Below are positions 11,191 through 47,114 of a stretch of DNA of 64,000 bases, piece after piece. The position numbers were made by a program, and so were the translations under genes. The stretch comes from Paraspadella gotoi (taxonomy: Eukaryota; Animalia; Chaetognatha): NCBI GenBank assembly GCA_051294375.1, contig JBJCIZ010000275.1, forward strand, positions 28,119 through 92,118, written 5' to 3'. Positions within the stretch are counted from its first letter, which is position 1, and every line of letters starts with the position of its first letter. The notes under the pieces were generated by a model. That model was not told the origin of the DNA, did not search any database, and worked only from the letters and a program-made list of their open reading frames with translations.

Positions 11191-11429
11191 AATCCTCTCT
11201 GGTTAAGGCTGACGTTTATGACCATATCTCGGAAACTATTGTTGGAATTTTAAAATGTGAATATTGACATCATCCTACAGGGACTGGCATAAAAATNNNN
11301 NNNNNNNNNNNNNNNNNNNNNNNNNNNNNNNNNNNNNNNNNNNNNNNNNNNNNNNNNNNNNNNNNNNNNNNNNNNNNNNNNNNNNNNNNNNNNNNNNNNN
11401 NNNNNNNNNNNNNNNNNNNNNNNTATCTA

Positions 11430-11570
11430 ATTAAAGGGTGATATAGGACAGAGGAAGGGTGATAGGCTATTAAATTTGTTAAATGCTGATAAGGGATTAG
11501 GGATAATGGCTATTCAGGAAACACATTGCAAAGATGATGCTGATTTATGTCAGGCTGTAAGTTGGTTGTG
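11430..11570 (+). pseudogene. N-terminal fragment of a LINE apurinic-type endonuclease (also at 19580-19720 +, 32545-32690 -, 37720-37860 -)
   Basis: Translates as LKGDIGQRKGDRLLNLLNADKGLGIMAIQETHCKDD. The I-x-x-I-QETH motif is typical of L1/Tx1-like APE domains. Confidence 0.6.
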
Positions 11571-11773
11571 AGTCTTCATCAGATGTGTAAAAACACTTGA
11601 TTCCGATCCTGTTGCATCTGAAGGGCTCGCATTTTTTTTCTCTTGTCAAATCATCAACATCTTGATATCAAACAAGCCAGAACAAATAGACTGCTTCTGT
11701 AAGAACAAATTTTCCATCTTTGATTTTATATAGAATTGAGAGGGATTTTTTCCCTTAATGACAATATAAACAT

Positions 11774-13938
11774 TGTAGAAAACTATCAGTCTCCACGCTT
11801 GCGGTCCAAGGCGTTCGAAGCGTCGCCGTCCAAAAAGACGGGTTAATGACAAGAGTCTTCACTGACTGAAGAATCTCTGCAAAGTGTAGAAACGCCCGAA
11901 TTTCCCAAAGTAAACGTATATTTTGGTGACACAAAACGTAGCAGAACGTGGCAATATCGTGACAAATAATAAGTAGTGAAAACTGCGTAAAAACAACGGT
12001 TTTCGGCGCGAGCGACCGTGTATCCAAAATGTTCACGAAAACAACTGAAAATCCGGTCTCAAAAAATGCCAACGGTAAAAATATAAAATGAAGCCGATAT
12101 CGAAAACTGGGATATGATAAAGAGAGAGAGTGACCAAAAAGGACACACAAATACGAGGCGATTTCTTTCACCCCATCAGTAAAAAAGTACATTCTTTTTG
12201 AACACTAAAGGAGAAAAAGACAAAAATCGCCAGAGTAACATAAAGCAGTACTAAAGTCTATAGTCGTGCCTGAAAAATCCGGTACTCTAAAATCCGGATC
12301 AATGATAAGTTAGATACTTAGAATTGTACGTGAAAAGCCAAGAAGAAAAAGATATCCCCATCGTAAAATTTTTAAATCAAAATTCCGAAATGGCAACATG
12401 GAGTTTCAGATACTTCAAATTGTACACAATAAAAAGATAAAAAAATATATCCCCCAATCGTAAATGACAGGTGACTAAATCCAAAAAAAAAAAATTTCCA
12501 AAAATTTTCACAAAAAAATTTGGGGCCAAAAAAAAAATTCAAAAATTCCAACCAAAATTGGCAAAATTCAAATTCACGAAAATTCGCAACATTAACTTTT
12601 TCACCTTTCCAACATTTTCAATTTTACACGTTTTGCACATTTCAGGCAGTCTTTATTCGTAGGAGTTTTAAAGTTGACACCTATCGACGGCCGATATCTG
12701 ACTAGGATTTTCATTGCCGACCGTCCTTGAACATTCTCGTCGGGTTCTTTGTTTCTCTTGGCGCAGTCATGAAGCCGACGAATGGTGGGCGTCCATTGCA
12801 GACAGGCACACCCCGAGAGAGTGGAAGTGGTGAGCGGTGTGTCCGAGCTGTAAGGCATCGAACACAGCCCTTTTTGTAGCACAAAAGGTTTTTTTAATAT
12901 CACGCCATACGAAAAGATACAGAGAGCACCGACCAATAAATGGGCTTTTTTCGCACAAAACAAACATGAAGCCTGTGCGTCGCCATACACATGGTTCCGT
13001 CCTTCGTAAAAGACGGCTGATCTCTGGGAGACTGCGTCGACTTGGGCATCGTTGTTCCAGTCGCCGTTTCTCCGCCGGCGGAATTGGTCGGTTCCTTGGA
13101 AAGATGTCGGTGGCGGAATCCTGGGGGACGAAATCCGCCTAACACAAAATAAAAATTTCGTTGAAAGAGTTGAAGAGCAGAAGCTTCGATGGAGTTGGAG
13201 AGGAAACGGGAGTCGAATCCAAAAGGCCCGTTCTTCTCCATTTTTTCGTATTTCCCTGAAGTTCGATTCTTCAACGTGTCGAACTTCTTCTTTGAAGATT
13301 CCCCATCATTGTTTCGAGTCGCGGTTCAAGTAAGTTCTTTTAAAACAATCAGGCATCTTCAGGAAGTTGATCATTGACCACAAGGAATATGTCTTGTAAC
13401 TAAATCGCGGTGTTCCTCCGCTGAGGCGGTCCGAGAAATCAAACATTTTCTCAGTCGAATGTTCTTGCTCTAATGCGCTTTTAATCCACAATCTTTAACG
13501 CCCGGTTTCCGCGAAGCCAATTCATTGTTTACTGTAGAAAAGCCTATCAGTCTCCAGCGCTTGCGGTCCAAGTGTTTCGACAGCGTCGCCGTCCAAAAGG
13601 GTTATGAACAAGAAGTCTCACTGGACGAAGAATCTCCGCTAAGCTGTAGAACGCGAATCCCAAAGTAACTATATTTTGGTGACACAAACGTAGCAGAAAC
13701 GTGCAATATTCGTGACAAAATAACGTAGTGAAAACTCGTAAAAACAGGAACGGTGTTTCGGACGAGGGCTGCGGACCGTGTATCCAATGTCACAAACAAA
13801 CTGGAAAATCCGGTCACTCAAAAAAAATGCCAATGTAAAAATATGAAAAATGACCGATATCGAAAACTGGCTAATGATTAACGAGAGAGAGAGAGAGTGC
13901 CAAAAGGACAGCTAAATACGAGGCGACATTTCTCTTCA
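11774..13938 (-). mobile_element. Internally deleted (gag-only) BEL/Pao LTR retrotransposon; duplicate at 19930-22129
   Basis: Two LTRs of about 400 bp (11774-12170, 13533-13938) with TG..CA ends and a 5-bp TSD AACAT (11769-11773, 13939-13943). The empty site is seen in the paralogous segment near 31725. The gag remnant has three Cys/His knuckles. Confidence 0.9.
12730..13490 (-). pseudogene. BEL/Pao gag remnant (frameshifted)
   Basis: Frame-corrected reading SCLFCAKKAHFIGRC...KGLCFRCLQLGHTAHHxHSLGVCRxCNGRHHSSLHD, which matches the triple zinc knuckle of BEL/Pao Gag. Confidence 0.85.
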
Positions 13939-16900
13939 AACATATTTGAGATATGTTCCGGTTTCATAAATGACGTTAAATTCTGGCAAAGTGTCCGAAG
14001 GTCTCTCAAAATGTTTCTTTACATTTTATTTAGTTATTCTAATATGATACCATCATGTTAAAGAGAATTAGTTGATTTTGGTGAAATTTGTGGCCACTGG
14101 ATCAGGGAAAAGTATTTAAAGCTTTAATTCAAGATTTGAAGCCTTTTGTTTTAACTGTTCAACGAGATATGTCATCTCCCAAATCCTCCGCCCCGCGGGG
14201 CGGCTCTAGGGGCGGCCCCAGGGGGCAGACTATTCCAGGGGGAGTAGGAAAATGGACATTGAGGGGGCGCCCCCTCTGGATTGCCTCAGGGGGCCGCCGC
14301 CAGGGGGTTTCCCCCTGGGCCAACATTTTGGATCTATTAGGGCGCCCCTAATGCTTAGCCCCCTGGGGCCAAAAAAAGTCAGCCCCTGGGGGTAACCCTT
14401 TGGGCGCAAAAAACTGCTNNNNNNNNNNNNNNNNNNNNNNNNNGCAATTATCACGTTTCATTTTTCGTGTCCATTTGAATTTGAATACGCCCAATTCGAA
14501 TTGATTGTAGCGCACCCTGCTGGCAAAAATGCAATTATTATGCAGCCATTAACTTGTGCGTCAAGAGCAGACATCAAATACGCTGACTGTCACCAAATTC
14601 TTCCATCACTTTTGCCTTTCTAGCCTCAAGTTTGGCACCCTTAAAAGCACTTAGCCATCATTCTCTATTTAATCTAAGAGATCATACATTTAAATATTTT
14701 GTGAATAAAGCTAACAATTAACCTCCTTGCCAAAAATCAGCCAGAACTGATTGTGAGAAAGCTGCTCATTGATATAACAAGACGCATTATAGTGAGTTAA
14801 CACCAAGGAGTTCTAGAACTGAGCACCTGTATAAAATTGCCCAATTTTGACTCAAGCTTGTTGACGGGTTGAAGGTTTTGGGGGTTGATGGGTCTTGGGA
14901 GGGGGGTTATGAGAGTTGCGAAGAAATTTTATTTACGAGTCGATGGTAGTGACTAAAATTTACTGAAGAATCATTTTGATTCAAGGCTCGTTGCAGCATT
15001 TGAATGTTATATTAATAACATTAAAAATAGGCCAAAGTTGTTGTTATTAATTACACAAGGTGGAATAGTTTATTGCTTTTGCTGGGGGTGAAGGGGTGGG
15101 GGGTTAAGTTTGGAGGGTGAGGCGGGCTGCGAGACATTTCCAATTCAATTTGAAACACTGGAAATGATTCAGTTTTCTCCCAATTTTTTGGGACAGATGA
15201 CTGACTCTAGATGGATGACAAATGTTCTTCGATCATTAAAGATTACCGTCGATTCAACACAGTGTAGCTTGAATGACAAATAAGCAGCCAGCATAATCTC
15301 TGACAGAAAAAAAATTCTACATAATTTTTGTCAGCTGAGCTGACTTTAGCAGGTTTGACCACTGACAGGTTTTGCTCTGAAATGATGACAGGACAGAATT
15401 CCGCGAAGACTGACAAAAGGATTGATGACAGTTAGCACCGACGAATGATGGACGATTCACAAAACTTTTAAACTTACGAAACATCGCCCTCTCTTATTCC
15501 CTATAGCCTTTTCGATCCGTTTCGAAGCAGGAAGGGAGGGGGAGACGGGATCATCCGGACACACTGTAGTTGACACGGAGATCTGAGCCTCGAATCTCGC
15601 GAAAACTCTTTTTTTATTTAGTTTCAACAACTATATTTCGATTTTTTCGACTCGAGACGCGTATGATTAACAGCGGCGGGGAGACGCGAAACCGAAGTGA
15701 CTCGAACGCCGACCGCCAGACGAGAGCATCTTCGATATGGCGGGGAGAGCAGCGATCGGGGCGCGGGGGTAGCGAGAAGGCAGACACTGAAGGTGAAAAG
15801 GGGAGTTCATCTTTGGAAAAACGGCGACGAAGATTTTGTTAGCGCATTTTCCAGTAACTAATGGGTCTTTCTTAACTTCTCGGCGCCTAGGGTTCTTGAG
15901 TTTTGAAGATTCTTTTTTTGCGTCGAAACGAAAAAAAGTAAATAAAATCGACCCTTCCAGCGAGGAAGCGGGATGAAAAGAGTCTTCTATTTCCGCTTTA
16001 GTTTCTTGTAAAGTTCGAGTTGTAGGTTTTTATGATTTTTTTTTCACTATTTTTATATCGACTTTAGTATTTTTTGGCTGCTGGCCAGTGTCTTTTTGCG
16101 AAAAAAAATCGGTTGCATCGCCGGAGGGGGGGAGCGGAGATAGAGAGGTTGGTTTCCGGATTCATAAGGCGATCGTAGGGGGAGGAGAGTTGATTCGCGA
16201 AAGTGATTTAATTCGAAATGCTACCGTACATCTTTTATTTGGTTCATTATGATTGCGATTCGGCGCGCATGATCGAAGATCGGCGCGAAACGACTCGTTT
16301 TATTAATGAGAAGCAAAAAATGCTGGATGGGTGCGGAATCGGAGGAAGAGGAAATGAGGCAACGAGAGGGAGAGGGGCGAAGGGACGATGAGGGGAGTGA
16401 GCGAATTAATATTTTTTTTTTTTTTTTTTTTGACGTCAGTGGCCGCCGGCGATTAAAAACGGCGCCCGCCGAAGACTCGGAGATTTGGGATTGGAGCAGA
16501 ATATATTTTGTTTTGCGCCCTGCCAGTGCTAGCTGATCGAAGAAGAATATCGACAGTTCACCCTTAGTCATGATTCAGCGAAGGAGAGAAAAAAAAACGA
16601 CGCCAGATTGAATCTCGTTCAAATCGATGCGATTCGCGGTAAAATTCAATCGATCGAAGTGGGAGGTGAGACGCGAAATCCAATAGAAAAAAAATTGGAG
16701 ATTTTCGCCCAAAAAGTGATGCCAGCTTAGCCTGCAAAGAAAACGAGTCTCTAACTCTCGATGGAGGCAAGCAGATGAGGAAAAAATCAGGAAGAGAAGA
16801 AATGCGATTAAATGTTTTTGTTTTTTTTTTTGGTCGGCAATGCCCCGTCAAAAAAAGTACGGGGTAATGGGGAAAACGAAAGATGGGCAAAAAATAAAAT

Positions 16901-22896: not shown

Positions 22897-23284
22897 TGGT
22901 CAACACGAGGATCTGGCCGCCCAAAACAATTTCTCCTCTTCTGTCTCGTTTCTTCAGTATTGATGTAAACCTTGATGAACAGCTTTTGTTTTATCTTGAA
23001 ATAAATATCATATTTATCAATAGTTAACATATTTTTATCTATTCTAAAAAATGTAATATCTACATTATTTACTAAGAAAAAATGTTTTAATTTGATCTTG
23101 AATAATCTTCTCAATTGAAAACAAATCAACTCAAGACGAACAAATTTCTTCTGCGCTGCCGACATACTTCTACTATTAACTCTTTGTTATACTCTGTCAC
23201 GCCGCCTTAAAACCTCAGTCACGCGTTGTTTTTTTTTATCACGGCGCTTCGTCACGCAGTCACGCAACTCTTGCGACTGCGCCA

Positions 23285-24507
23285 CACATGGGGAACCACA
23301 ACGTTGAACCCAACACCAACCTCTCACAGGCGGGAAAAAATGTCAACTTGAACACTTTCGAGCTACCATCAGAGTCTAACAACACCGGTAAGCCAACTAA
23401 GACAACAATCGCTTCCAAATGAGGCCGATTGCGACGCTATTTGTCATGCCTTCTGCTCGGCCCAGCGTAGCTAGGCAAGGAACAACCATTACGCAAACAC
23501 CAGCTCTGCAAGTCTAGGAGTCGCCGATAGTCGCGACACCGCCCCATATGATTCACGTTTTCCACACGCCTCAACAGTCGAGGAACTTTGACACGCTACG
23601 CTATCATGGCCGTATTCGGGCCGGCAGCACTCATGGAGCGAACTCCAGATGAAATGATGAGCCTCCGCCGCCGCTCCTCACCGCCGCCACGCAGGCTCGA
23701 ACAAGCTGCACAGACCGGTAACGACTGCCAGATATCGATCTGTCAAACATTGAAATCTGGATTAACAGCGAATCGCAGGCCTCTTATACTCATGCCGGGC
23801 ATTGATCGCTCCAAAAAACGAAAAATTTTGCCGCCAGCTTTAAGAATCTAAAACTAAACGCGTATAAGCCTCGATCCCAAAGTTACATCAGGTTTCCTCT
23901 CTTCGGAGATACAACAAAGCAACATGGTAAACCTCTTTTTCATATCTGAGAAAAGTGTACTAGGCTCACCCGGCCGCGCAACAGACTCGGATGAATCGTG
24001 AAACCGTCAAAATTACTCGCACAACTCTCGATGACGTGCGCAAAGAGAAGGTTCTTCAGGAGCTGCCAGCTGAAATACGCCACCAACTTGAAGACAAAGC
24101 GAGCTTGTTGAAATCGCTAATTGACATTTTGACAACGAGGGAAATCCTAAAATTTGACAAATGTCATCTCTCGTAAACCACGTGAAACAGGGCCACAAAG
24201 GGCGACACAAATCCGAATTGGACGACAAGGTTGGCGTCAATGCCGTCAATGTCAAACCAAAAAGAAGCTTTAATGGAAAGAAGAAGTCAAGTCAAGGACA
24301 AAAAGCTAAACCAAAGCCAAAGCTTAAAACGCTATGCCACAAGCACAACAAGTTCAACAAAGTCGCTTGGTTTTGCGAGCCAGGCTGTGCTAAGTTTGAT
24401 GAGACTGAACGCAAGCACAAGGAAAACGCCAGAGGGGGACACCAACGGTGAACGCCGTCCCCCAAGAATCAAACCGATCACCAGTGACAAACGATTTGCT
24501 CTTCATC
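23285..24507 (+). pseudogene. CsRn1-clade Gypsy gag plus start of protease (inverted duplicate of the 5' part of the minus-strand element)
   Basis: Gag ends in LCHKHNKFNKVAWFCEPGC (C-X2-H-X9-C-X3-C, the CsRn1 CHCC motif). The -1 frame from GGAAAAC at 24421 reads QGKRQRGTPTVNAVPQESNRSPVTNDLLFI. Confidence 0.85.
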
Positions 24508-24869
24508 AGCGGCCATTGGTGCCAGGGGTAAGTCATTCGCCTCCCAACCCAAAGGTCCGGGGTTCTAGTCCGGTGGTCACCTAGCAGTTAAGAGGGACGG
24601 GGCACTTAACCCGCCTGTAACACGGTTTTACAGCCTGATCCGAAAACTCAGGGACTGCTTATATTGAACGGTTCTGTCACTTACACATAACAATTATTAC
24701 TGTCTCTTCATTGGTGAGCCCAACTTCCGAACACAACAGCAACAACAACACTTTCAGGCGACATGCCTCAACTTGGTGACGAACTTTCCACCAACAACAA
24801 TTTACTGAAGAGACGCAACAGACTTCTCCCTTCGGGAGGGGGGGATGTATGGTGGACTAAAATTCATCA

Positions 24870-24941
24870 GCGGCCATTGGTGCCAGAGGCAAGTCATTTG
24901 CTTCCCAACCCAAAGGTCCGGGGTTCTAGCCCGGTGGTTGC
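24870..24941 (+). promoter_or_regulatory. tRNA-derived (Gly-CCC-like) Pol III promoter head in the LTR (also at about 24509-24581)
   Basis: Acceptor-like stem GCGGCCA/TGGTTGC, A-box-like TGGTGCCAGAGG, loop CTCCCAA/TTCCCAA, B-box-like GGTTCTAGCCC. The anticodon stem is broken, so this is not a functional tRNA. Confidence 0.7.
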
Positions 24942-24943
24942 CT

Positions 24944-25019
24944 AGCAGTTAAGAGGGACGGGGCACTTAACCCGCCTGTAACACGGTGTTACAGCCTGAT
25001 CCGAAGCTCAGGGACTGCT
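24944..25019 (+). ncRNA. Twister ribozyme, type-P5 permutation (second copy at about 24583-24659 with a mutated L4 loop)
   Basis: P5 AGCAGTT/GACTGCT; GG-GA-CGG; TAA cleavage motif at 24968-24970; CC-C-GC; P3 CTGTAACAC/GTGTTACAG; P4 CCTGA/TCAGG with loop TCCGAAGC; T1 CCG:CGG; T2 GC:GC. Confidence 0.78.
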
Positions 25020-25699
25020 TATATTGAACGGTTCTGTCACTAACACTTAACAATTATTACTGTCTCTTCAGTCGTCCACTGTGTGTTTGTAAAGTATGAT
25101 GTGAAAATAATATATTGAAAAAGTTTAACAAAAAAATAAGACGATCGTCTTTAGAATCCACCAAAAATCCGAAAAACTTTCCAAAAATTTGAAAATATAC
25201 AGGAGGAAGACCGATGACCAAGGGCTTAGAAGTTCCGGCTGCTGAGTAGACTGATATCGGGATTTTGCTCTTCATTTAGTTGTCCATGTTGTCGTTTTGT
25301 ATTTTTTGTCTCTCCAGAATTTTCTTGAGGACAACCGAGTAGATGGGTCGGATGTTCGGGCCGCTGCTTTATCTTCTTTTTTGTGATTCTTCTCTTGCTC
25401 CATTTTCTTTGGACTCGTCCCGCGTGAAGGCTGGGGAGAAGATGATGCTGGAAGAAAAAAACATAATGGAGGGGAGGGTGGGTCTGGGGGAAGGTGGGGT
25501 TGCTTGCGAGTAAGTGGGGAAGCTGGGGGGGAGGAGGAGGAGGAGAAGAGGAGGAGAAGGAGGAGGAGCGACTCGTCGATTATTGGAGCGAGTGACTCGA
25601 TCCGTTTGGGCCGCTGTCCTAGTTCTCAGGCCGGGTTGGCGACCTTCTGGGCGTCGTTGGGGATGTGCCTAGTCGACCTCCATCGCCTCGTTACTCACC

Positions 25700-26290
25700 C
25701 ACGCTGGTTTTATTCATGAAATATTTATTATTTTGCGTCTGACGCTCGTGATTTCCACTGATGTTTAACTCATTTTGATTTATCACTTTATATGGGCATT
25801 CATATGGTGGAACTAGAGGGGGATTCACTCCTGAGCGTTTGATGAAGACGTATTTTGCTGACTCAAGGTTTCTGGGTAAGTGAATGGCCGGTTGATGATG
25901 AGTGGAGGTCTGAGTTGGCTGGAGATGGGTGACTACGATTCTAAGTTTCGTGAGTTGTCGTCAACATTGGATCACATCATTGTCTAGTTGCTCGTTGACA
26001 AGTATGCAACCGAGGATGCTCATGCCTTCCCCAAAAACGAAGTCGGCCGCGGAAGCGCCGATGTCTTTCTTCACCGTCGTTATTATCGCCAATAATGTCA
26101 TTGGCAACTTTCAGAACCAATTCTTTCTATTTTCGTTGGCGAGGGCCTTGAGAGATTCTTTGAGTCGCCAGTGGAACCTCTCTACCAGGCCATTGGCCTA
26201 GGGATGGTGAACAGTCGTCATTTGGTGTTTGATTCCTCATTGTCTAATTAACTGTTTCCAGAGTTGAGTACCTCGATCCGTTGTGGTGAT
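25700..26290 (-). pseudogene. Gypsy integrase core and GPY/F-like region (in-frame stops)
   Basis: ITTTDRGTQLWKQLIRQ*GIKHQMTTVHHP*ANGLVERFHWRLKESLKAL...LVPPYECPYKV. Confidence 0.88.
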
Positions 26291-26429
26291 GATACTGATG
26301 ACGATAGAGACGAGGATGATGTCGAAGTTGTTGACGGCGATGTTGACAGCGTCATTGATGCTATTATTGTTGTTGGCGGCGTTGACGTTGTTGGCGATGC
26401 GTTGGTTGTTGATTCTGGAATTGCATCTG

Positions 26430-26698
26430 TAGTGATGACGGCCATCTTTTTGACGTCGTCGGGGTTTACGGGAATTTATTGGTAACCTTTTAATAAATCG
26501 ATTTTTGAAAAAATCGTTTTTCCTTCTAGTTGCAAAATAAAATTTGAAAGGAGTTTTACAGGACATTTCTCATCTATGGTATTGGTGTTTAGACGCCTAT
26601 AATCAACAACAACACCATCCTCTGTCGAGTTTTGATACAACGTGGAGAGGTGATGACCACTCGGATTTTCCACGCTTAGCAATCCCCAATGAAACCAT
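26430..26698 (-). pseudogene. Gypsy reverse transcriptase N-terminal fragment (upstream part at 29453-29620, on the other side of the HINE)
   Basis: MVSLGIAKRGKSEWSSPLHVVSK...DYRRLNTNT...KTIFSKIDLLKGYQ*IPVNPDDVKKMAVIT. Confidence 0.88.
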
Positions 26699-28891
26699 TT
26701 TTAGTCGGATCTGCTTATCAGCAGATCCCGACTCTATAACTCACTTTTATAAACTCACTTTTCGGTCCGTCGGTCCGCCCCCTCAATATCGTCGGGCACA
26801 CACTTATATCATGTCAGAACATCGAATTATGATAAATTATGCAAAAAAAAATGATGTCCGTCCGTCCGTCTGTCCGTCCGTCCGTCCGTCCGTCCGTCCG
26901 TCCGTCCGTCCGTCCGTCCGTCCGTCCGTCCCCACCTTACAAAAAACACCAATTACTCGTGATTGGATGGATGGATTAAATGAAATTTTGTGTGTGGATA
27001 GGTAAGTGTGTGATTAGAGCTGGATATTAAGTTTCGATGAATCGTTCCGAGTGGAAATGAGTTTAAATGGAAAAACAAAAAAATATATTCACTATTTGAA
27101 CACCAATTGCTCATGAGTGGATGGGCTGATTGACCTGGAATTTTGTATGTGGGTAGGAAAGTGTGTGATTGAACAGGAAATCAAGTTTCGATGGATAGTT
27201 TGAGTGGAAATGAGTTTAAATGGAAAAAAAAAAAAAACCTGTTTTACTATTGATTATGCTTCTTTTTCCTTTTATATTAAATGTATCTGCAGGATGTATT
27301 AATAAATCAAATAATTAATCAGTTAATTAATCAATTAGTAAATAAATTAATCAATAATTAATTAATTAGTCAATCAATCCGTCCATCCGTCCCATCTTAG
27401 CCAAAAAGCTCCAATAACTCGTGATTGGCTGTGTGGATGGAATTAATTTTGTGTGTGGGTAGGAAGTGTGTGATAAAGCTGGAATAAAATTTCGATGGAA
27501 TCGTGTGAGTGGAAATTAGTTTAATGGAAAAAACATAAGTCGAATTACTAAAATCTTTTTACTTATTTTAACAATAAATATTCCAATTAATCATAATTGG
27601 ATGGATAGATTGAGTTGAAATTTTGTGTGTGGGGTAGGAAAACGTATGACGAAGCTTGATATAAAGTTTCAGTGGAAACGTACCAGTGGAAATGAGTTTA
27701 AATGAAAAAAATATAGGTCACATTTACTTGAATCTTTTATTTATTTTAACCCATGATAGATTTGAGATGAAATTTTGGTGAGCCGGTAGGAAAGTGAGTG
27801 AAGAAGCTAGTATAAAGTTTTGACGGAATGCAAGTTGAAAAAATTATGCAAGTTGAAAAAATGATGCAAGTTAAAAAAATTTAAAAGCATAAGGATCGTC
27901 GCTATTGCATAAAAGAGAGAGAGAGAGAGAGAAAGAGAGAGTGAGAGAGAGAGAGAGAGAGTGAGAGAGAAAGAGAGAGAGTGAGAGAGAGAAGAGACAG
28001 GAGACATAAAATAAAAAAATCTTAAAAAGACTCAGATCGAGCCAGAGCCACTATCATAGAAAAATTAATGAAAAAACCCGGGAAAAAAACGAATGAATCA
28101 TGCGATAACGAATTGTTGATGTACTAGTAATTGATTGAGGTAATACTAATGATTGATGTATATAGTAATTATTGATAATAGGAATTGATTATTGATTCGA
28201 TGATAATCAATTATTGATGCGATGATAGTCATTCACTGCTGTGATGATAGTCATTCAGTGATGCGATATTGTCATTCATTGATTCGATGATTGTCATTCA
28301 TTGATGCGATGGATAGTCAATAAACAAACAAATGCGTGTATGAGTGAAAGAGAGAGAGAGACGAGAGAGAGAGAGAAAGAGAGAGAGAGAAGAAAGAGAG
28401 AGAGAGAGAAAGAGAGAGAGACGAGAGAGAGATAGAAAGAAAGAGAATAAATCCACGAAAAATCTCGGATGAAAATATGGAATTTTGTATTGAAAAAAAG
28501 CGCGGAATAAATGGCAATAATAAAAAGTTTTTAGAAGGAAAAAAATAATCAGAATTTTTCAAAAAACAAACGATCACGCAAAAGATCGGACAGATAGGAC
28601 AGACACACACAGAGAGACAGAGAGACAGAGAGAGAGAGAGAAAAGAGAGAGAGACAGCCGCTGCAGAGAAAAAGAGAAAGAGAAGGCGATATATAATAAT
28701 TAAAAGAGAGAGAGAGAGAGAAGCTCTACAGCCCCTTTACTCGTTAAAGAATCAGCAGTACTTATGGCGCCGCACGCTAGCGTGAGCTATTCTCTACCCA
28801 AAGGACCGGTTCGCGCCCTGTTCGCGGCATCGTTTTTTACATTAGATGAAACCCACATTATATTTAAAAATTTTTTAAAAAAAAGAGAGAG

Positions 28892-28922
<31 letters not shown>

Positions 28923-29452
28923 CTGGACAGACGCTGCAGAGCGAACTCGTTTTAGAAGAAAGCAGTGACGGAGAAAAAGAGAGAGAGAGAGAGACGACAT
29001 ATAATTAAAATTTTTGTTTTGAAATAAAACATAACAAATACCAATATTGATATGAAACATGAGAATTTTAAAGATCTTGATGATTAGAAGCCATATATGA
29101 AATTCAACTCCCTATGATATCACACTTTCAGAAGCCATGATTGCAAAAAGCGAGACCGAAAGCGATAAACCGAAAAAAATCTAGACAGGACGGGCTTTGC
29201 CCGCTGGCTGATAATAGAGGATATTTGTTTGTTTTGATAAAATGTAAACAAAACATTTAATAACTGTCCTGACTCAATTTTAAGGAATCGATGATGACAA
29301 GCTGAATATAAATTATAATTAATCTATTAATTAATTAATTAGTTAATTAATCTATTAATTAATTAATTAATCTATTAATTAATTAATTAATTAATCAATT
29401 AATTAATTAATTATCGTAGGCAGATCCGACATTGTTTGCTCAAAACTTGTTT
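26699..29452 (+). mobile_element. Full-length HINE/DINE-1-like element, copy B (about 2.75 kb)
   Basis: 5' hairpin subTIR, (GTCC)n at 26855-26930, internal tandem subrepeats and (GA)n tracts. 3' subTIR GCAGATCCGAC, then a GTTTG-CT-CAAA(A)C stem-loop and TTT. Inserted into a T-run with no distinct TSD. Confidence 0.85.
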
Positions 29453-32101
29453 CTAGTTCACGTTTAGCGATAGCAAGCTTTTCTGCGTCGAGTCGGCGTG
29501 CTCTTGACTGACAGGGTCGACCTTCTGTCGGAATTGAAATGAGTTACACCATGTTTTGGTTACTTTTAGTTCGAACGTTGACGTCGAGAGGGATGAAAAT
29601 TATTTAAGGAGTTTATAGAATTTTTCTCATTTTGATCTACAAATTACATGAGTTGATTCCTCTGATGCCGTCGACGCAGCGATTGTGGAGTAGTCGTGCA
29701 AATCGGAGTAGTAAATCATCACAGTGATTTGGCACAAAAAGTTTTCAGCTAAAAAGTCAATGCCAAGGATGTGTTGCCTTACCATCAGCCACAACGAACT
29801 CGTAATGAAATTTTTGATTCCCTAACTTTACAGTTGATTTCCCATTACATGCGATTGGCGAGGCGTGGCGCCTGGAGCTTGATCTCCGGGCAGGGCCCTG
29901 TTGATGCTGTTGTTGAGTCGGCAGGACGATTGAGAGTAGGGATCCTCCATCTACTAGCCATTTGTTGATCGCTGGCGTCGTGGATGAAGAGCAAATCGTT
30001 TTGTCGCTGGTGATCGGTTTGATGCTTGGGGGACCGGCGTTCACCATTGGCGTCCCCCTCTGTCATTTCCCTTGTGCTTGCGTTGAGTCTTATCAAACTT
30101 AGCACCAGCCCGGCTCGCAAAACCAGCTTTTGCCGAACTTGATTTGCTTGTGGCATAGCGTTTTAAGCTTTGGCTTTGGTTTAGCTTTTTGTCCTTGACT
30201 TGACTTCTTCTTTCCCTTAAAACTTCTTTTGGTTTGACATTGACGGCGTTGATGCCAACTTGTCATCCGATTCGGATTTGTGTCACCTTTGTGACCCTGT
30301 TTGACGTGGTTTACGAGAGATGACGTTTGTCGAATTATAGGATTTCCCTCGTTGTCGAAATGTCGATCAGTGATTTCACCAAGCTTGCTCGCCGACAACT
30401 TGTCGGCTTTGTCTTTCAGGTAGAGCGTATTTCAGCCCGGCAGCTCCTGAAGAACCTTCTTTTTGCACACTCATCGAGAGTTGTCGAGTAATTTTGACGG
30501 TTTCAATTCATCGAGTCTGTTGGTGCCGGGTGAGCCCATACTCTTTTGTCAGATAACTGAAAAAGAGTTCCATGTCGCTTCTGTTGTTTCTCCATAGAGG
30601 AACTGATTAATCTTAGGATCAAGCTTCACGCTTATTTTAGATTCTAAGTGGCGAATTTTGTTTTTGGAGCGACGATGCCGGCATGAGTAAGCAGCTCGAT
30701 TCGTTTATCCAGATTTCAATGTTTGACAAATGGATATTTGGCAAGTCTGTCTTCTGGTTTGGTGCTCGCTCTAGAGCCCGCGTGGCGGCGGCGAGAGCGT
30801 CGCGGAGCTCGTCGTTCTTGTCCTGGAGTTCTTGTTAAGTGCCACCGCCCGTAGCCTGACGACGTCTGCAAAGTTCTCGCTGTTAGCTCGTAGAAAACTG
30901 AACGATGGGGCGGTGTCGGCGACTCCTAGGACCTGCAGAGCTGCTGTTGTGTAATGTTGTTCCTCCTAGCTACGCTGGGCCGAGCGAAGGCATGAGCGTA
31001 GGTCGGAATCGCTCATTGAAGCAATTGTTGTCCTTAGTTGGCCTTCACTGGTGTTTTAAGACCCCACAGTAGCTCGAAAGTGTTTGAGTTGTGTTTATCT
31101 CCCCTTGAATGTTGGTTTGGTTCAACGTCGTGGTTCACCACGTGTGGCGCAGTCCAGAGTTGCGTGACAGCGGTGACGAAAAGCCGTGATAATGTCGTGA
31201 CTGAGTTCCAAGCGCGTGACAGATTATAACAAGTTAATAAGAAGTATCGCAGCACAAAAGAATATTGTTTCTTTTTGAGTTGATTTGTTTTCAATTGAGA
31301 AGAATTATTGAAGATCAAATTAAAACCTTTTTTCTAGTAAATATTGTAGAGTTTTACATTTTTAGAATAAAACATTGTTGAAAAATATTGATAATATTTA
31401 TATTTATTTCGAGATAAAAACAAGACTGATTCATCAAGGTTTACAATCAATACTGAAAAACAATCAGAAGAGGAGAAATTTGTTTTTGGCAGCCAGACAT
31501 CTTCTGTTGAACAGTTAAAACAAAAAGCTTCAAATCTTGAATTAAAGCTTAAATACTTTTCCCTGATCCAGTGTCCGCAAATTTCACCAAAATCAACTAA
31601 TTCACTTTAACATGATGGTATCATATTAGAATAACTAAATAAATGTAAAGAAACATTTTGAGAGACCTTCGGACACTTTGCCAGAATTTAACGCCATTTG
31701 TGAAACCGGAACATATCTCAAATACGTTTATATGTCATGAAGGGAAAAAATCCCTCTCATTTCTATGTTGCATCTCTAGCTACTGAACTCTGACTGAGCT
31801 GTCAAGATGAATAAAAGGTTTGAATAAATTTCATTTCTATTTACAACATTTAAGCAATTTTGTGTGTGGAGAGGAACTGAACTCCTTATCTCTTGCTTTC
31901 CCTTTTTATATCTTTCAAGGACCCCCTTGAAGATATGCGCAACCGGATCTTTGGATTTCACTGGGATTGTGAAATCCAAGCCGCCTTTTCTCAGGTGGGT
32001 GGGAAAACCACAAACATCTTCCCTGAATTCTATTTTTTAACTTTTATCCCCCCACGATTTCTTTCGACCATTTAGTTATCAAGGATCAAAGATCGTGATG
32101 C

Positions 32102-32380
32102 TGTAGTCGGGCATTGCCTAGGTTCACCCCGCCTATAAGCATGACACCTTCAGTCCTGACCCGGTGGCTCATGGAGTCAAGCCATCAGCTCATGACCACT
32201 AGGTACCGGGTTCAATCGACCCGCGTACCTACCTGTGGAAGCGTGAGGACGGCCGTAAGCCGCCTTGGGGGCGTGGCAACCCTCAAGCCTGGTTCCAAGC
32301 CCAGGACACGTTCCTATGGCTACTAAGGGGTTATAGAAGTTCGGATAGTCATCTTCAGCCCACTTAGCGCCTTATCCACA
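32102..32380 (+). mobile_element. Solo LTR (inner, family 2) with tRNA-like head and twister ribozyme, 4-bp TSD ATGC; duplicate at 37262-37546
   Basis: Termini TGTAG...TCCACA with ATGC flanks (37258-37261, 37547-37550). A-box-like TGGCTCATGGAG, CTCATGA loop, B-box GGTTCAATCC. Confidence 0.82.
32232..32319 (+). ncRNA. Twister ribozyme, type-P5 permutation (family 2)
   Basis: AAGC-GT-GA-GGA-CGGCCG-TAA-GCC-GC; P3 CTTGGGGG/CCCTCAAG; P4 CCTGG/CCAGG with loop TTCCAAGC; T1 TCC:GGA. Confidence 0.75.
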
Positions 32381-35300
32381 ATGTACATCTATATAAAATC
32401 AAGATGAAAATTTGTTTGTACAGAAGCAGTCTATTTGTTCTGGCTTGTTTGATATCAGATGTGATGATTTGACAAGAGAAAAAAAAATGCGAGCCCTTCA
32501 GATGCAACAGGATCGGAATCAAGTGTTTTAACACATCTGATGAAGACTGCAACCAACTTACAGCCTGACATATCAAGCATCATCTTTGCAATGTGTTTCC
32601 CTGAATAGCCATTATCCCTAATCCCCTATCAGCATTTTAACAATATTAATACCAATCACCCTTCTCTTGTCCTATATCACCCTTTAATTAGATACCTCAT
32701 AGGAGAGCTAATTTTAATTCATTTTTTTATATATTTTATGCCAGTCCCGTAGGATGATGTCAATATTCACTTGCAAAAACGTTTTAAAATTCTACAATGT
32801 TCCGAGATTGTCATAAACGTCAGCCTTAAAGGTAAAATTTAAATCAGAATAAAATTTTGAGTTTCTCTAAAGATTTTCTGACGCGCTAATACTAAACCTA
32901 TTTGAAAAAAATAGAAAAACATTTTGCTGATTTTCTTCAAGCATTTAACAATAAATGAGTTATGCGATGGTACACTGAAAGTGATGTCTCAGATGACGAA
33001 AAAAATTTCTTCAGTTTTATAATTAAAATTTAAGTATTTGTACAATAAAATATAAGTAAGATACTCCCGCTTAGCCGAAACTTTAATTAACAAAAATTTG
33101 TACGCGTAGTTCAAATCTTTAGTCTTTGATGGTAAAAACAAGTGAGCAAACATGTCGGATCTGCCTACAACAATTAAGCGTATCTGCTAATCAGATGATA
33201 ATCAAATATTTTTTTAAATTTTTTTAACTCGCAGCACTTTTTAACTGCATCATTTTTCAACTCGCATAATTTTTTCCATGCACATAATTTTTTCAACTCA
33301 TCATTTTTCAATTACATCATTTTAAACAATTCGCATCATTTTTTTTAACTTGCATCATTTTTCAACTTGCTATGATTTTTTCAACTTGCATTATTTCTTC
33401 AACTTGCATTATTTCTCAACTTGGCATAATTTTTTCAACTTGCATAATTTTTTCACTTGCATAATTTTTCACTTGCATAATTTTTTCAACTTGCATTAAT
33501 TTTTTCAACTTGCATATTTTTTCAACTTGCATAATTTTTCAACTTGCATACTTTTCACTTGCATATTTTTTCAACTTGCATAATTTTTTAAACTTGCATA
33601 ATTTTTTCAACTTGCACAATTTTTTTAAATTGTATCATTTTTTCAAATTAATTAATTAAAACATTTATTAGGTATCATAAATAAAAAAATATTCAAGTAA
33701 ATGTGACTTATGACATATCTTGGAAACTNNNNNNNNNNNNNNNNNNNNNNNNNTAGAAAGAGAAAGAGCGATATATAATAATTAAAAAGAGAGAGAGAGA
33801 GAAAGCTCTACAGCCCCTTTACTCGTTAAAGAATCAGCAGTACTTATGGCGCCGCACGTAGCGTGAGCTATTCTCTACCCAAAGGACCGGTGTTCGCGCC
33901 CTGTTCGCGGCATCGTTTTTTACATTAGTGAACCCACATTATATCTAAAAATTTTTTGTAAAAAAAAAGAGAGAGGAGAGAGAGAGAGAGAGAGAGAGAG
34001 AAAGAAGCTGGACAGACGCTGCAGAGCCGGAACTCGTTTTTAGAAGAAGCAGTGACGAGAAAAAGAGAGAGAGAGAGAGACGACATATAATTAAACGTTT
34101 TTGTTTTGAAATAAAACTAAACAAATACCAATATTGATATATGAAACATGAGAATTTTAAAGATCTTGATGATTAGAAGCCATATATGAAATTCAACTCC
34201 CTATGATATCACACTTTCAGAAGCCATGATTGCAAAAAGCGAGACCGAAAGCGATAAACCGAAAAAAATCTAGACAGGACGGGCTTTGCCGCCTGGCTGA
34301 TAATAGAGGATATTTGTTTGTTTTGATAAAATGTAAACAAAACATTTAATAACTGTCCTGACTCAATTTTAAGGAAATCGATGATGACAAGCTGAATATA
34401 AATTATAATTAATCTATTAATTAATTAATTAGTTAATTAATCTATTAATTAATTAATTAATCTATTAATTAATTAATTAATTAATAATTAATAATTAATT
34501 ATCGTAGGCAGATCCGACATTGTTTGCTCAAACTTGTTTCTAGTTCACGTTTAGCGATAGCAAGCTTTTCTGCGTCGAGTCGGCGTGCTCTTGACTGACA
34601 GGGTCGACCTTCTGTCGGAATTGAATGAGTTACACCATGTTTTGGTTCTTTTAGTTCGAACGTTGACGTCGAGAGGGATGAAAATTATTTAAGGAGTTTA
34701 TAGAATTTTTCTCCATTTTGATCTACAAAATTAACATGAGTTGATTCCTCTGATGCCGTCGACGCAGCGATTGTGGAGTAGTCGTGCAAATCGAGTAGTA
34801 AATCATCACAGTGATTTGGCACCAAAAAGTTTTCAGCTAAAAAGTCAATGCCAAGGATGTGTTGCCTACCATCAGCCACAACGAACTCGTAATGAAATTT
34901 TTGATTCCCTAACTTTACAGTTGATTTTCCCATTACATGCGATTGGCGAGGCGTTGGCCGCCTGGAGCTTGATCTCCGGGTCAGGGCCCTGTTGATGCTG
35001 TTGTTGAGTCGGCAGGACGATTGAGAGTAGGGATCCTCCATCTACTAGCCATTTGGTTTGATCGCTGGCGTCGTGGATGAAGAGCAAATCGTTTTGTCGC
35101 TGGTGATCGGTTTGATGCTTGGGGGACGGCGTTCACCATTGGCGTCCCCCTCTGTCATTTCCCTTGTGCTTGCGTTGAGTCTTATCAAACTTAGCACAGC
35201 CCGGCTCGCAAAACCAAGCGTCTTTGCCGAACTTGATTTGCTTGTGGCATAGCGTTTTAAGCTTTGGCTTTGGTTTAGCTTTTTGTCCTTGACTTGACTT

Positions 35301-38300
35301 CTTCTTTCCCTTAAAACTTCTTTTTGGTTTGACATTGACGGCGTTGATGCCAACTTTGTCATCCGATTCGGATTTGTGTCACCCTTTGTGACCCTGTTTG
35401 ACGTGGTTTACGAGAGATGACGTTTGTCGAATTATAGGATTTCCCTCGTTGTCGAAATGTCGATCAGTGATTTCACCAAGCTTGCTCGCCGACAACTTGT
35501 CGGCTTTGTCTTCAGGTTAGAGCGTATTTCAGCCAGCAGCTCCTGAAGAACCTTCTTTTTGCACACGTCATCGAGAGTTGTGCGAGTAAATTGTTACGGT
35601 TCTCAATTCATCGAGTCTGTTGGGTGCCGGGTGAGCCCATTACTCTTTTGTCAGATAACTGAAAAAGGGTTCCATGTCGTTCTGTTGTTTCTCCATAGAG
35701 GAACTGATTAATCTTAGGATCAAGCTTCACGCTTATTTTAGGATTCTAAAGTGTGCGAATTTTGTTTTTGGAGCGACGATGCCGGCATGAGTATAAGCAG
35801 CTCGATTCGATTTATCCAGATTTCACTGTTTGACAAATGGATATTTCTGGCAAGTCTGGTCTTCTGGTTTGGTGCTCGCTCTAGAGCCCGCGTGGCAGGC
35901 GGGCGAGAGCGTCGCGGAGCTCGCGTTCTTTTGTCCTGAGTTCTTGTTAAGTGGCCACCGCCCGTAGCCTGACGACGTCTGCAAAGTTCTCGCTGTTAGC
36001 TCGTAGAAAACCTGAACGATGGGGGGTGTCGGCGACTCCTAGGACCGCAGAGTGCTTGTTGTGTAATGTTGTTCCTCCTTAGCTACGCTGGGCCGAGCGA
36101 GAAGGCATGAGCTAGGTCGGAAATCGCCTCATCTGAAAGCAATTGTTGTCCTTAGTTGCCTTCACTGGTGTTTTAAACCCCGACAGTAGCTCGAAAAGTG
36201 TTTGAGTTTGTGTTTATCTTCCCCTTGAAATGGTTGGTTTGGATTCAATCGTCGTGGTTCAACCTACGTGTGGCGGCAGGTCCAGAGTTGCGTGACAGCG
36301 TGAACGAAAGCTCGCTGAAAGTGATTATGCTCTGTGACTGAGTCCAAGCGGTGGACAGATTTAACAAGCTTAATAAGAAGTTTATCGCAAGCCACAAAAG
36401 AATATTGTTTTCTTTGAGTTGAAATTGTTTTCTCAAATTGAGAAGAATTTATTGAAGATTCAAATAATAACCTTTTCTTAGTAATATTTGTAAGTCATTT
36501 TACATTTTTAAAATTAAAACATGTTGAAAAATACTTGATAAATATTTATATTTATTTCGAGAATGAAAAACAAGCTGATTCATCAAGGTTACATATCAAT
36601 ACTGAAAAACAATCAGAAGAGGAGAAATTTGTTTTTGGCAGCCAGACATCTTCTGTTGAACAGTTAAAACAAAAGGCTTCAAATCTTGAATTAAAGCTTT
36701 AAATACTTTTCCCTGATCCAGTGTCCGCAAATTTCACCAAAATCAACTAATTCACTTTAACATGATGGTATCATATTAGAATAACTAAATAAAATGTAAA
36801 GAAACATTTTGAGAGACCTTCGGACACTTTGCCAGAATTTAACGCCATTTGTGAAACCGGAACATATCTCAAATACGTTTATATTGTCATGAAGGGAAAA
36901 AATCCCTCTCATTTCTATGTTGCATCTCTAGCTACTGAACTCTGACTGAGGCTGTCCAAGATGAATAAAAGGTTTGAATAAATTTCATTTCTATTTACAA
37001 CAAATTTAAGCAATTTTGTGTGGAGAGGAACTGAACTCCCTTATCTCTTGCTTTCCCTTTTTATATCTTTCAAGGACCCCCTTGAAGATATTGCGCAACC
37101 GGATCTTTGGATTTCACTGGGATTGTGAAATCCAAAGCCGGCCTTTTCTCAAGGTGGGTGGGAAAACCACAAACATCTTCCCTGAATTCTATTTTTAACT
37201 TTTATACCCCCCACGATTTCCTTTCGACCATTTAGTTATCAAGGATCAAAGATCGTGATGCTGTAGTCGGGCATTGCCTAGGTTCACCCCGCCTATAAGC
37301 ATGACACCTTCAGTCCTGACCCGGTGGCTCATGGAGTCAAGCCATCAGCTCATGACCACTAGGTACCGGGTTCAATCCCAACCCGGTACCTACCCTGTGG
37401 GAAGCGTGAGGACGGCCGTAAGCCGCCTTGGGGGCGTGGCAAGCCCTCAAGCCTGGTTCCAAGCCCAGGACACGTTCCATGGCTACTAAAGGGGGTTATA
37501 GAAGTTACGGATAGTCATCTTCAGCCCACTTAGCGCCTTATCCACAATGCTACATCTATATAAAATCAAAGATGGAAAATTTGTTTGTACAGAAGCAGTC
37601 TATTTGTTCTGGCTTGTTTGATATCAAGATGTTGATGATTTGACAAGAGAAAAAAAATGCGAGCCCTTCAGATGCAACAGGATCGGAATCAAGTGTTTTT
37701 ACACATCTGATGAAGACTCGCAACCAACTTACAGCCTGACATAAATCAGCATCATCTTTGCAATGTGTTTCCTGAATAGCCATTATCCCTAATCCCCTAT
37801 CAGCATTTAACAAATTTAATAGCCAATCACCCTTCCTCTGTCCTATATCACCCTTTAATTAGATACCTCATAGGAGAGCTAATTTTAATTCATTTTTTTA
37901 TATATTTTTATGCCAGTCCCCGTAGGATGATGTCAATATTCACTTGCAAAAAACCGTTTTAAAATTCCTACAATAGTTTCCGAGATATGGTCATAAACGT
38001 CAGCCTTAAAAGGTAAAATTTATCAGAATAAAATTTTTGAGTTTCTCTAAAGATTTCTGACGCGCTAATACTAACTATTTGAAAAAAATAGAAAACATTT
38101 TGCTGATTTCTTCAAGCATTTACAATAAATGAGTTATGCGATGGGTACAACTGAAAGTGATGTCTCAAGATGACGAAAAAAATTTTCTTCAAGTTTTATA
38201 TTAAAATTTAAGTATTGTACCAATAAAATTAAGTAAGATACTCCCGCTTAGCCGAAACTTTTAATTAACAAAAATTTGTACTGCGTAGTTCAAATCTTTA

Positions 38301-38313
38301 GTTCTTTAATGGT

Positions 38314-38868: not shown

Positions 38869-39238
38869 CTTATGACCATATCTTGGAAACTATTGTAGGA
38901 ATTTTAAAATGGGTTTTTGCAAGTGAATATTAATTTAACATCATCCTCCAGGGACTGGCATAAAAATATATAAAAAAATTAATTAAAATTAGCTCTCTTA
39001 TGAGGTATCTACTTATACTCTCTGATACTCATTGTCTACATTTAGGTACAAATCGTGTTCTCATACGTTAAATATTAAAAAATGCATAATTATTATTAAT
39101 AAATCAATTATCAAATGATTTCATACATTAAAAATAATATGAAATTATTATTTATTTAAATATAAGCAAATAAATAAATTATAAATTAATAAAATTAGTA
39201 CTGTTTTAAATACAAACAAAATTAAACATTAAACTTTA

Positions 39239-41306: not shown

Positions 41307-42240
41307 GTATTAGACGAGAATCTCGATTTAAAAAAGATTCAACATTTTTCTTATATAGATTTCCGTTCAAATCTGACTACCCAAATTGCAAACGCGATTG
41401 CCAAAAATCCGGGTAGAAATCAGTTGTAAAAACGCAGGATTCCGATAGCGTTACATCTGAAGAGCTTGTCCTATTCGTTTTTTCACATTTGATGAAGGAT
41501 TTGATATCAAACAAGCCAGGGGAAATGCACTCCTCATAGTCAGAGAATTTTCAAACCTCATTTTTACTATAGAAATGAAAGGGAAAGTTTACAAACTTAA
41601 AATTGCAAACGGGATTGCTATATGTTCCTGTTACATGAGAGACTTCGAATTTCGCGATTCCGATAGCTTTGTTTCTGAATAGCTTGTCCTATTTTTCATT
41701 TTTCATTTTATAATGATTTTGACATAAAATGATCAGGTTAAAATGAAATAGTCTGGTTTGAATCGCGAAATTTTTATTTAAAAGACATTAAAAGGAAGGT
41801 TTGAGAAAAAACTGTTTTTTCCTAATGTCTTTTGAAGAATAAAGATAAAGGGATGGCAATAGTACCAAAATGAAACCATAATCATAGGGCACTTACAAGA
41901 TACAATTTTTAGAATTTACTTATACTGAAACCTCTTACAGGGTAAGCGTGTCAACTAAGTCAAAATTTATAATGAATTTTAAAACTAAATGACACCCATA
42001 AGAATTAATGAAAATTAAATTATTTTTTAATGATTCTGAAAGAAAAAGGCTAAATTATACTCTAGTAAAACTTTAAAGTTTTTTTGGATAAAGAATGTGA
42101 ATTTTTTGTCACTTAAATATTTGCTTGTCTGATTTTACAAGCATGCTTACAAAATCTACAAAAATATTATTTACCCAAATCACAGCCTAAGTATTTATCC
42201 TTCTTTTCCACAGAAAAGTAAACATTATCTTATTATCTAC

Positions 42241-42510
42241 GTGGGCTGAAGATGACTATCCGTAACTTCTATAACCCCCTAGCAGCCTGGAACGGGTCCT
42301 GGGCTTGGAACCAGGCTTGAGGGTTTGCCAATGCCCCCAAGGCGGCTTACGGGCCGTTCCTCACGCTTTCCGCAGGGTAGGTACGGGTTGGGGATTGAAC
42401 CCGGTATCTAGTGGTCATGAGCTGATGGCTTTACTCAATGAGCCACCGGGTTCACAACTGAAAGTGTCATGATTCTAGGCGGGGTTGAACCTAGGCAATG
42501 CCCGACTACA
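42241..42510 (-). mobile_element. Family-2 tRNA/twister LTR copy, missing about 17 bp of the 3' end; twister at about 42286-42376
   Basis: Reverse complement of 32102-32363, with an intact GA-GGA..TAA-GCC-GC..CCTGG-TTCCAAGC-CCAGG core and P5 CCTGCGG/CCG-TTC-CAGG. Confidence 0.8.
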
Positions 42511-46961: not shown

Positions 46962-47114
46962 TGTGGATAAGGCGCTAAGTGGGCAGAAGATGACTATCCG
47001 TAACTTCTATAATCCCCTCAAGCAGACATGGAACGAGTCCTGGGTTTGAAACCAGGCTTGAGGGTTTGCCATGCCCCAAAGGCGGCTTACGGCCTTCTTC
47101 ACTCTTCCCGCAGT
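46962..47114 (-). mobile_element. 3' half of a family-2 tRNA/twister LTR with a mutated twister core
   Basis: Matches 32232-32380. The loop reads TTTCAAAC and the T1 partner is AGA, so pairing is lost. Confidence 0.75.

Follow-up and report, generated by a model that had tools for sequence, protein, structure and literature searches.

A twister-derived fold in the tRNA-headed terminal repeats of two Paraspadella gotoi retroelement families: a possible dimer-activated retrozyme

Which RNA would a retroelement make if each of its terminal repeats held both a promoter and a self-cleaving ribozyme, and what would keep the product from being cut again? The question is raised by a short element, here called family 1, that occupies positions 24502 to 25070 of a 64,000-nucleotide (nt) stretch of the genome of the chaetognath Paraspadella gotoi (GenBank assembly GCA_051294375.1, contig JBJCIZ010000275.1, positions 28,119 to 92,118 of the forward strand); this whole stretch is the window, and coordinates count from its first letter. 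The long terminal repeats (LTRs) of the element place a sequence that is almost certainly twister-derived behind a tRNA-like head, and the same order recurs in the LTRs of a second family in the window (family 2). A sequence-only reading of the window had proposed that transcription by RNA polymerase III (Pol III) and twister cleavage release a unit-length RNA that circularises and is copied by a Gypsy reverse transcriptase (RT). The reading favoured here, with a probability of roughly 0.55, adds a switch: family 1 would be an LTR retrozyme with a dimer-activated twister, its mobile form a 361-nt circle and its proteins borrowed from Gypsy elements.

The element has the makings of a terminal-repeat retrotransposon in miniature (TRIM): less than 1 kb, two LTRs, a PBS (primer-binding site) as well as a polypurine tract (PPT) (Table 1). 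The succession of LTR, PBS, 135 bp, PPT and LTR given in the sequence-only reading holds up, since 24502-24710 and 24863-25070 form direct repeats with 94.3% identity across 209 nt, the PBS begins at 24711-24712 and the PPT ends at 24845. Of the span assigned to it, 24502..25070, the 3' end stands; the start of the repeat does not, because the LTR really begins with TG at 24846 (225 bp) and LTR1 is truncated at its 5' end. The 3' end is fixed by other genomic copies: in each of four public sequencing runs, from three studies, 37-129 contigs continue from 25070 into unlike flanks. The same runs show family 1 to be clearly abundant and present in high copy, with 950-15,457 contigs per run aligning to the element's kilobase and a depth, summed over the LTRs and not to be taken as a copy number, about four orders of magnitude above that of the flank. 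The PBS is of the tRNA-Trp type that is used by a Gypsy family. It agrees with the tRNA-Trp PBS printed in the supplement of the paper on Helenus elements (PMC10886601; papers are cited by PMC number, for the accessible parts of their texts) at 11 of 13 positions; the majority base of other copies at 24722 would raise this to 12. Folding predicts a 10-bp pairing, enclosing the PBS, between the 3' end of the LTR (24700-24710) and internal positions 24806-24815; a similar complementarity of LTR and internal region is seen by eye in fish Helenus families of the same supplement.

In LTR2, the P5, P3 and P4 stems, the pseudoknots T1 and T2, the GA and UAA letters and the L4 loop of a P5-type twister all lie where the sequence-only reading had put them, and the predicted cut sites of the two LTRs, 24607/24608 and 24968/24969, are indeed 361 nt apart. 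The core letters (GA, U^AA, GC and an 8-nt L4 with AAGC) are intact in LTR2 and in family 2 and broken in LTR1, whose altered loop had already been remarked on; the change breaks T2, so that the LTR1 copy is likely inactive. T1 and T2 are present in LTR2 and family 2 with every pair Watson-Crick, and P4 has 5 bp in both families. The earlier description was right about core and pseudoknots and passed over two departures from the twister class, both common to the two families. The 4-bp P2 is replaced by a 3-nt strand with 2 bp plus a mismatch, and in place of the P1 stem there is a 6-nt link, P1 being possible only between two copies.

What carries the assignment is the covariation between the families, which supports it more strongly than the sequence-only reading could. 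The LTRs of families 1 and 2 have no BLAST similarity beyond 9-11 nt (best match 9 nt, E 0.32). Pairing survives every difference between them: letters change in 2 of the 3 pairs of T1, on both sides, in 1 of the 2 of P2, in 1 of the 5 of P4 and in 6 of the 8 of P3; the letters of T2 and of the core are identical, and the predicted cut lies 46 nt (family 1) or 50 nt (family 2) after box B of the head. The two families are not to be regarded as fully independent, since they may share a remote ancestor. At one independent family 2 insertion a 4-bp target-site duplication (TSD) could be read.

Descriptor searches point the same way. A strict descriptor that includes P5 has a single match in 128 kb, the one in LTR2, and none in 41.5 Mb of Markov-random sequence. 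Relaxed, it has 125 matches in 41.5 Mb of such sequence and is not significant alone. A descriptor without P5 or P1, which was loosened after the family 1 sequence had been seen, has 4 matches in 128 kb, each inside an LTR of one of the two families and at the same position there; 223 Mb of random sequence yield 5, and in these P3 is missing throughout. The covariance models of Rfam did not pick up the LTR2 twister: there is no twister match for family 1 at E<=10. This is explained by the absence of the 8-bp P1 hairpin that the Twister-P5 model (RF02684) expects. The fold shares with that model the order of its elements, GA, UAA, GC, L4, T1, T2, P3, P4 and P5; apart from P1 it departs from it in the 2-bp P2 and, in family 1, in an A-U pair closing P4, and both families fall below its cut-off of 37.6 bits. 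For family 2 Twister-P5 is the best Rfam match, in the right register, at 16.8 bits (E 0.32), with P1 drawn as 3 bp around a zero-nt loop.

Phage twisters, fetched by pattern and then filtered for structure, offer a comparison. The filter was passed by 17 of 124 pattern matches of canonical form, by 20 of 120 loci with the CGG/CCG form of T1 and by 16 of 24 with a 3-nt P2 strand (a 3-bp P2 being common in phage P5 twisters). The Rfam threshold was reached by all 8 canonical loci submitted and by 9 of 10 submitted loci of the other two kinds; the 3-nt P2 strand and the CGG/CCG T1 are therefore natural variants. Two twisters lie about 480 nt apart on one phage contig (L388, among viral contigs L125-L388). 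A metagenome scan with a 17-mer returned 21 loci, all chance matches.

The head had been described as a tRNA-like unit with A and B boxes that ends 2 nt before the twister. The spacing is correct, the closing stem of the head ending 2 nt before P5, and the 11-bp stem and box B (GGTTC at 24922, as in Helenus) bear the description out; box A does not match the Helenus pattern TRGCY/YGG, and neither ARAGORN nor Rfam calls a tRNA in the family 1 head. The head may resemble tRNA-Gly. In family 2 both boxes are of textbook form, box A at 37325 fitting the Helenus pattern and box B being GGTTC. A run of four T residues (T4) is found in LTR1 of this family 1 copy; there is none in LTR2 plus the internal region, nor in the family 2 LTR. 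Two further features of the family 2 LTR are a TATA-like motif (37294) and a long hairpin that surrounds box B.

The P1 zone suggests how such a twister might be switched. In family 2 it is a perfect palindrome, with a self-duplex of -10.7 kcal/mol. In family 1 it is self-complementary when it carries the G that makes up 97-100% of the depth at 24604 and 24965 in all four runs (-8.3 kcal/mol, versus -2.1 for the window copy). A single random 6-mer is self-complementary with a chance of 0.02-0.05. In the monomer, a competing hairpin is predicted to tie up the T1 and P2/T2 strands in both families (pair probabilities 0.68-0.99), and this blocking fold is favoured over the nested fold compatible with the twister by 7.7 kcal/mol in family 1 and 13.7 kcal/mol in family 2; in 24 phage twisters the same gap never exceeds 7.9 kcal/mol (median 3.2). 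A gap of this size argues against activity of the monomer. Dimer-cleaving palindromic hammerheads are known (PMC6765202, PMC7761336): in the hammerheads of Penelope-like elements and amphibian non-LTR retrozymes (also PMC7229834) one helix is likewise reduced to a short palindrome, so that tandem copies of these minimal hammerheads must pair to cut. Those elements differ from the present one in their ribozyme, in being non-LTR and in having neither PBS nor PPT. Imperfections of P1 and P2 are tolerated in high-throughput assays (PMC11662667). The twister would very probably cleave itself in intact copies, and rather probably it would depend on a dimer for doing so. A constrained nested fold of the dimer, with a gap of 2.8 kcal/mol per copy, was set aside because P2 was not enforced in it and other inter-strand pairs formed.

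From these features we infer a route by Pol III transcription, cleavage, circularisation and Gypsy copying. Pol III would read from the tRNA head of LTR1 through LTR2. The two twister copies of the transcript would pair via their self-complementary P1 zones, swapping P1, and would then cut at U^A. The 361-nt piece, with PBS and PPT, would be released and ligated into a circle, as by RtcB in animal retrozymes (PMC7229834); since it carries a single, blocked twister, the circle would be stable. A Gypsy RT primed by tRNA-Trp would copy it into longer-than-unit cDNA, as in the circle-template model proposed for plant retrozymes, in which cleavage leaves an RNA without a repeat at its ends (PMC4918200). 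Because many family 1 copies have about 10 extra nt at 24862/24863 (seen at loose contig ends), the unit RNA of the family may be nearer 371 nt. The Gypsy family of the left flank is a candidate helper; its sibling at 31 kb has a similar, tRNA-Trp-like PBS.

Several points weigh against this route. The advantage of the blocking fold is, by the same models, a real obstacle for the dimer as well, whose pairing has to repay the energy. A suggestion cited in a review holds that an altered P2 length disrupts the active site (PMC5408937), and the pair that closes P4, A-U in family 1, is G-C in 24 of 24 aligned phage twisters (for 13 of which it was fixed by the search pattern). Of 102 phage loci with the family 1 copy's own motif spacing none passed the structure filter. 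A covariance model made from the 24 phage twisters ranks LTR2 first (E 0.016) in the wrong register; that alternative register contains no P2, T1 or T2 and was rejected. The lack of an Rfam match for family 1, the poor box A of its head and the late loosening of the descriptor without P5 or P1 belong here too. The predicted unit RNA of the window copy is 57% paired and does not exceed shuffled sequences in stability (z -0.44), which sets it apart from the strongly paired circles of retrozymes (PMC4918200). The window has no family 2 internal region. Finally, both LTRs of the window copy carry the base that breaks the palindrome, so that a parent with that base may itself have transposed.

The same evidence can be read otherwise. 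An active twister might serve a linear route, in which a cut mainly in LTR2 makes the 3' end of the RNA instead of a Pol III terminator, the LTR1 copy being blocked; a terminal repeat of about 100 nt, from tRNA head to cut site, would then be left for ordinary LTR strand transfer. The blocking hairpin, being short-range, would form during RNA synthesis, the predicted circle is not unusually stable, and the want of a T4 run in LTR2, the internal region and the family 2 LTR is in keeping with such an end, in contrast to the T-tract that, by eye, follows the tRNA unit in most of the Helenus LTRs examined (PMC10886601 supplement). However, a dimer formed by swapping P1 would be symmetric, so that both sites should become active, and no sequence feature favours LTR2 over LTR1; the linear route is accordingly judged unlikely. 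It is also conceivable that a single twister cuts by itself, in the manner of a mini-twister lacking P1, with the circle still produced and the palindromes incidental: P1 is dispensable in vitro (PMC5408937) and cleavage is not lowered by P1 imperfections (PMC11662667). That two different self-complementary 6-mers should occupy the same place in two unrelated families, next to a blocking hairpin more stable by 7.7-13.7 kcal/mol, makes monomeric cleavage rather improbable.

Palindromic dimer signals occur in LTR retroelements, and the hairpin might have been kept as an RNA dimerisation or packaging signal for Gypsy particles after a twister captured from another retroelement had ceased to cut; the element would then be an ordinary Helenus-like TRIM. 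The blocking hairpin does dominate the predicted ensemble, and P3 resembles, by eye, the P3 of RTE-linked twisters of Schistosoma (PMC8501958, Table 1). Yet neither the catalytic G and A nor L4 nor either pseudoknot is damaged, and they covary in two families; a packaging signal would need none of these, which renders a captured and silent fold distinctly improbable. That the twister match is a product of chance is scarcely credible: the matches of the relaxed descriptor and the missing Rfam match for family 1 are what can be said for it, and it is largely refuted by the counts of the stricter descriptors and by the covariation between the families. The dimer-activated retrozyme, moving as a circle, is thus kept as the favoured reading.

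The copy in the window is probably crippled, to judge from the palindrome broken in both LTRs and, in LTR1, the broken T2 and the T4 run. It has decayed: 7 of 13 checked positions at which other family 1 copies differ (24579-24965) are of CpG-decay type, the palindrome-breaking base in both LTRs being of this type as well. CpG-type differences in this interval suggest DNA methylation of family 1. Among 40 of the 93 variant rows, the high-depth variants inside the twister sit at the terminal pair of P5, in the P1 zone and in the loop of P3; their number is too small for statistics. LTR1 joins a degraded Gypsy gag/protease region by way of a microhomology of 6 nt. No TSD is readable for the family 1 copy, since the left end of LTR1 has been deleted onto Gypsy gag and the right flank is a different Gypsy remnant. 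A 12-nt repeat at 24495/25264 was rejected as a TSD, as the left Gypsy is not resumed in the flank on its far side. The LTR1 junction lies near the expected Pol III start, but a template switch there is unsupported: there is no upstream TRIM LTR, and the flank is part of duplicated blocks.

Gypsy fragments on both sides of the element are degraded, and none is named by Pfam; the right-hand remnant also has, by eye, an integrase-like stretch. The window further contains a 5-kb tandem duplication (28671-33728 and 33757-38891, 94% identity) and other duplicated blocks, and its many homopolymer indels suggest a noisy long-read assembly. A 760-amino-acid open reading frame at 43271-45553 (minus strand) has Ephrin_rec_like cysteine repeats; homologues of its N-terminal part occur in amphioxus, and many of these contain PF01823. 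Among named proteins, those closest to a window protein come from amphioxus, at about 33% identity.

Table 1. Coordinates in the window of the family 1 element, its LTR2 twister, family 2 copies and flanking repeats
Feature	Position	Strand	Remarks
LTR1, family 1	24502..24710	+	5'-truncated by 17 nt; T4 run at 24626-24629; twister loop with broken T2
LTR1 twister copy	24583..24658	+	predicted cut 24607/24608; T2 broken
PBS, tRNA-Trp type	24711..24724	+	11/13 matches
Internal region	24711..24845	+	135 bp, non-coding
PPT	24835..24845	+	adjoins LTR2
LTR2	24846..25070	+	TG...CA, 225 bp, complete LTR directly after PPT
tRNA-like head of LTR2	24870..24941	+	11-bp closing stem; box B at 24922; box A degenerate
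P5-permuted twister fold, LTR2	24944..25019	+	from descriptor searches and family comparison
LTR2 P5	24944-50/25013-19	+	7 bp
LTR2 P2	24955-56/24971-72	+	2 bp plus mismatch or bulge, 3-nt strand
Competing blocking hairpin (predicted)	24956..24976	+	pairs general-base G, T1, P2/T2 strands; probabilities 0.68-0.98
LTR2 GA	G24957-A24958	+	G is the general base
LTR2 T1	24959-61/25001-03	+	3 bp
LTR2 P1 zone	24962-67	+	6 nt; no intramolecular P1 hairpin possible
LTR2 predicted cut	U24968^A24969	+
LTR2 T2	24974-75/25006-07	+	2 bp
LTR2 P3	24976-94	+	8 bp
LTR2 P4	24995-99/25008-12	+	5 bp
Family 2 solo LTR	37262..37546	+	TG...CA, 285 bp, 4-bp TSD; box A 37325, box B 37369
Family 2 twister of 37-kb LTR	P1 zone 37413-37418	+	perfect palindrome; predicted cut 37419/37420
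Family 2 solo LTR, segmental-duplication twin of 37-kb copy	32102..32380	+	same insertion, not independent
Family 2 copy	42237..42510	-	same 5' end, 3'-truncated; independent insertion
Family 2 copy	46962..47113	-	same 3' end, 5'-truncated; twister core decayed
Left-flank repeat block	22897..24507	+	ends in degraded Gypsy gag region
Siblings of left-flank block	29983-31513 and 35076-36662	-	run on into protease-like sequence
Right-flank degraded Gypsy pol remnant	25694..26700	-	RT fragment resembles Ty3 RT, E 0.008

In this element two known kinds, TRIMp3 and the LTR retrozyme, come together, but the ribozyme is of another class and a dimer switch is predicted. With plant LTR retrozymes (PMC4918200) it has in common the non-coding LTR-PBS-PPT-LTR build, a self-cleaving motif in each LTR, Gypsy-type ends and the 4-bp TSD, the last seen here for family 2 only. 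Those elements have a type III hammerhead, a unit of 600-1000 and a tRNA-Met PBS, in contrast to the twister, the 361 nt and the tRNA-Trp type found here; the animal host, the tRNA-derived head, the predicted dimer dependence and a predicted circle that is not highly paired set the P. gotoi element further apart. Rfam finds no hammerhead in the family 1 LTRs, where a twister fold stands in place of the hammerhead that marks each LTR of an LTR retrozyme; by analogy the element would work like a retrozyme, and it falls outside the strict definition of LTR retrozymes. In the accessible texts, the animal retrozymes in print are said to have no LTR, PBS or PPT and to use hammerheads (PMC7761336, PMC7229834), the LTR retrozymes in print come from plants, and the only retroelements linked with twisters are non-LTR RTE long interspersed elements (LINEs) (PMC7761336, PMC8501958). 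Schistosoma repeats that are like short interspersed elements and combine a promoter with a hammerhead (PMC6765202, PMC4918200) resemble family 1 in placing a tRNA or promoter beside a ribozyme in a short repeat, and the T-variant twisters on Perere-3 (PMC8501958) resemble it as weak-P1 twisters on retroelements; these Schistosoma elements are non-LTR, and the T-variants are of P1 type, at the 5' end of an RTE LINE. Neither a twister in an LTR element nor a dimer-dependent twister was found in literature covered mostly by titles and the beginnings of abstracts, with few subscription journals and with the twister-context supplements of PMC11662667 and PMC8501958 outside its scope.

Helenus/TRIMp3 elements (PMC10886601) are likewise TRIMs of less than 1 kb with tRNA-like LTR sequence, a GGTTC box B, PBS and PPT; in animals they have a 4-bp TSD (seen here at one family 2 insertion) and an inferred Gypsy helper, as here. 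The family 1 element differs in having, after box B, about 130 nt that hold the twister. Helenus is defined by its tRNA-like LTRs, Pol III transcription of Helenus itself being unvalidated (PMC10886601). In the accessible part of that paper the twister is unmentioned and ribozymes occur only in the title of a reference, and in the accessible part of its supplement twister L4 motifs were found in no LTR (matches split by line ends would escape), nor was a twister noticed there by eye. An 11-nt stretch from the UAA region of the family 1 twister recurs in the LTRs of Ajax in the supplement, probably by chance; these show no twister loop by eye. The LTRs of two gall-wasp elements, Helenus-2_SyJa-LTR and Helenus-2_SyUm-LTR (PMC10886601 DataS1), have by eye a type III hammerhead just after box B, with the core letters, a 7-bp stem I and a long loop-loop complement. 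They lack the usual T-tract and have the same tRNA-Trp PBS; the hammerhead goes unremarked in the accessible text of PMC10886601. A wider claim can be put forward only tentatively, at somewhat less than even odds: that animals possess LTR retrozymes of tRNA-headed TRIM build, with a self-cleaving ribozyme in place of the Pol III terminator. Two unrelated families here, if not more, would have an obligate-dimer twister, on only with both LTRs in one transcript and off in the circle, and gall-wasp Helenus-2 would have a type III hammerhead in the same slot.

Families 1 and 2 show that Rfam misses P1-less twisters of this kind. If the dimer-activated reading is true, family 1 would be an animal LTR retrozyme that is twister-based and has its own Pol III promoter, and its ribozyme would be a natural twister dependent on a partner copy. 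Eukaryotic twisters would gain a concrete function, and it would become clear how a circle made by a ribozyme escapes being cut again.

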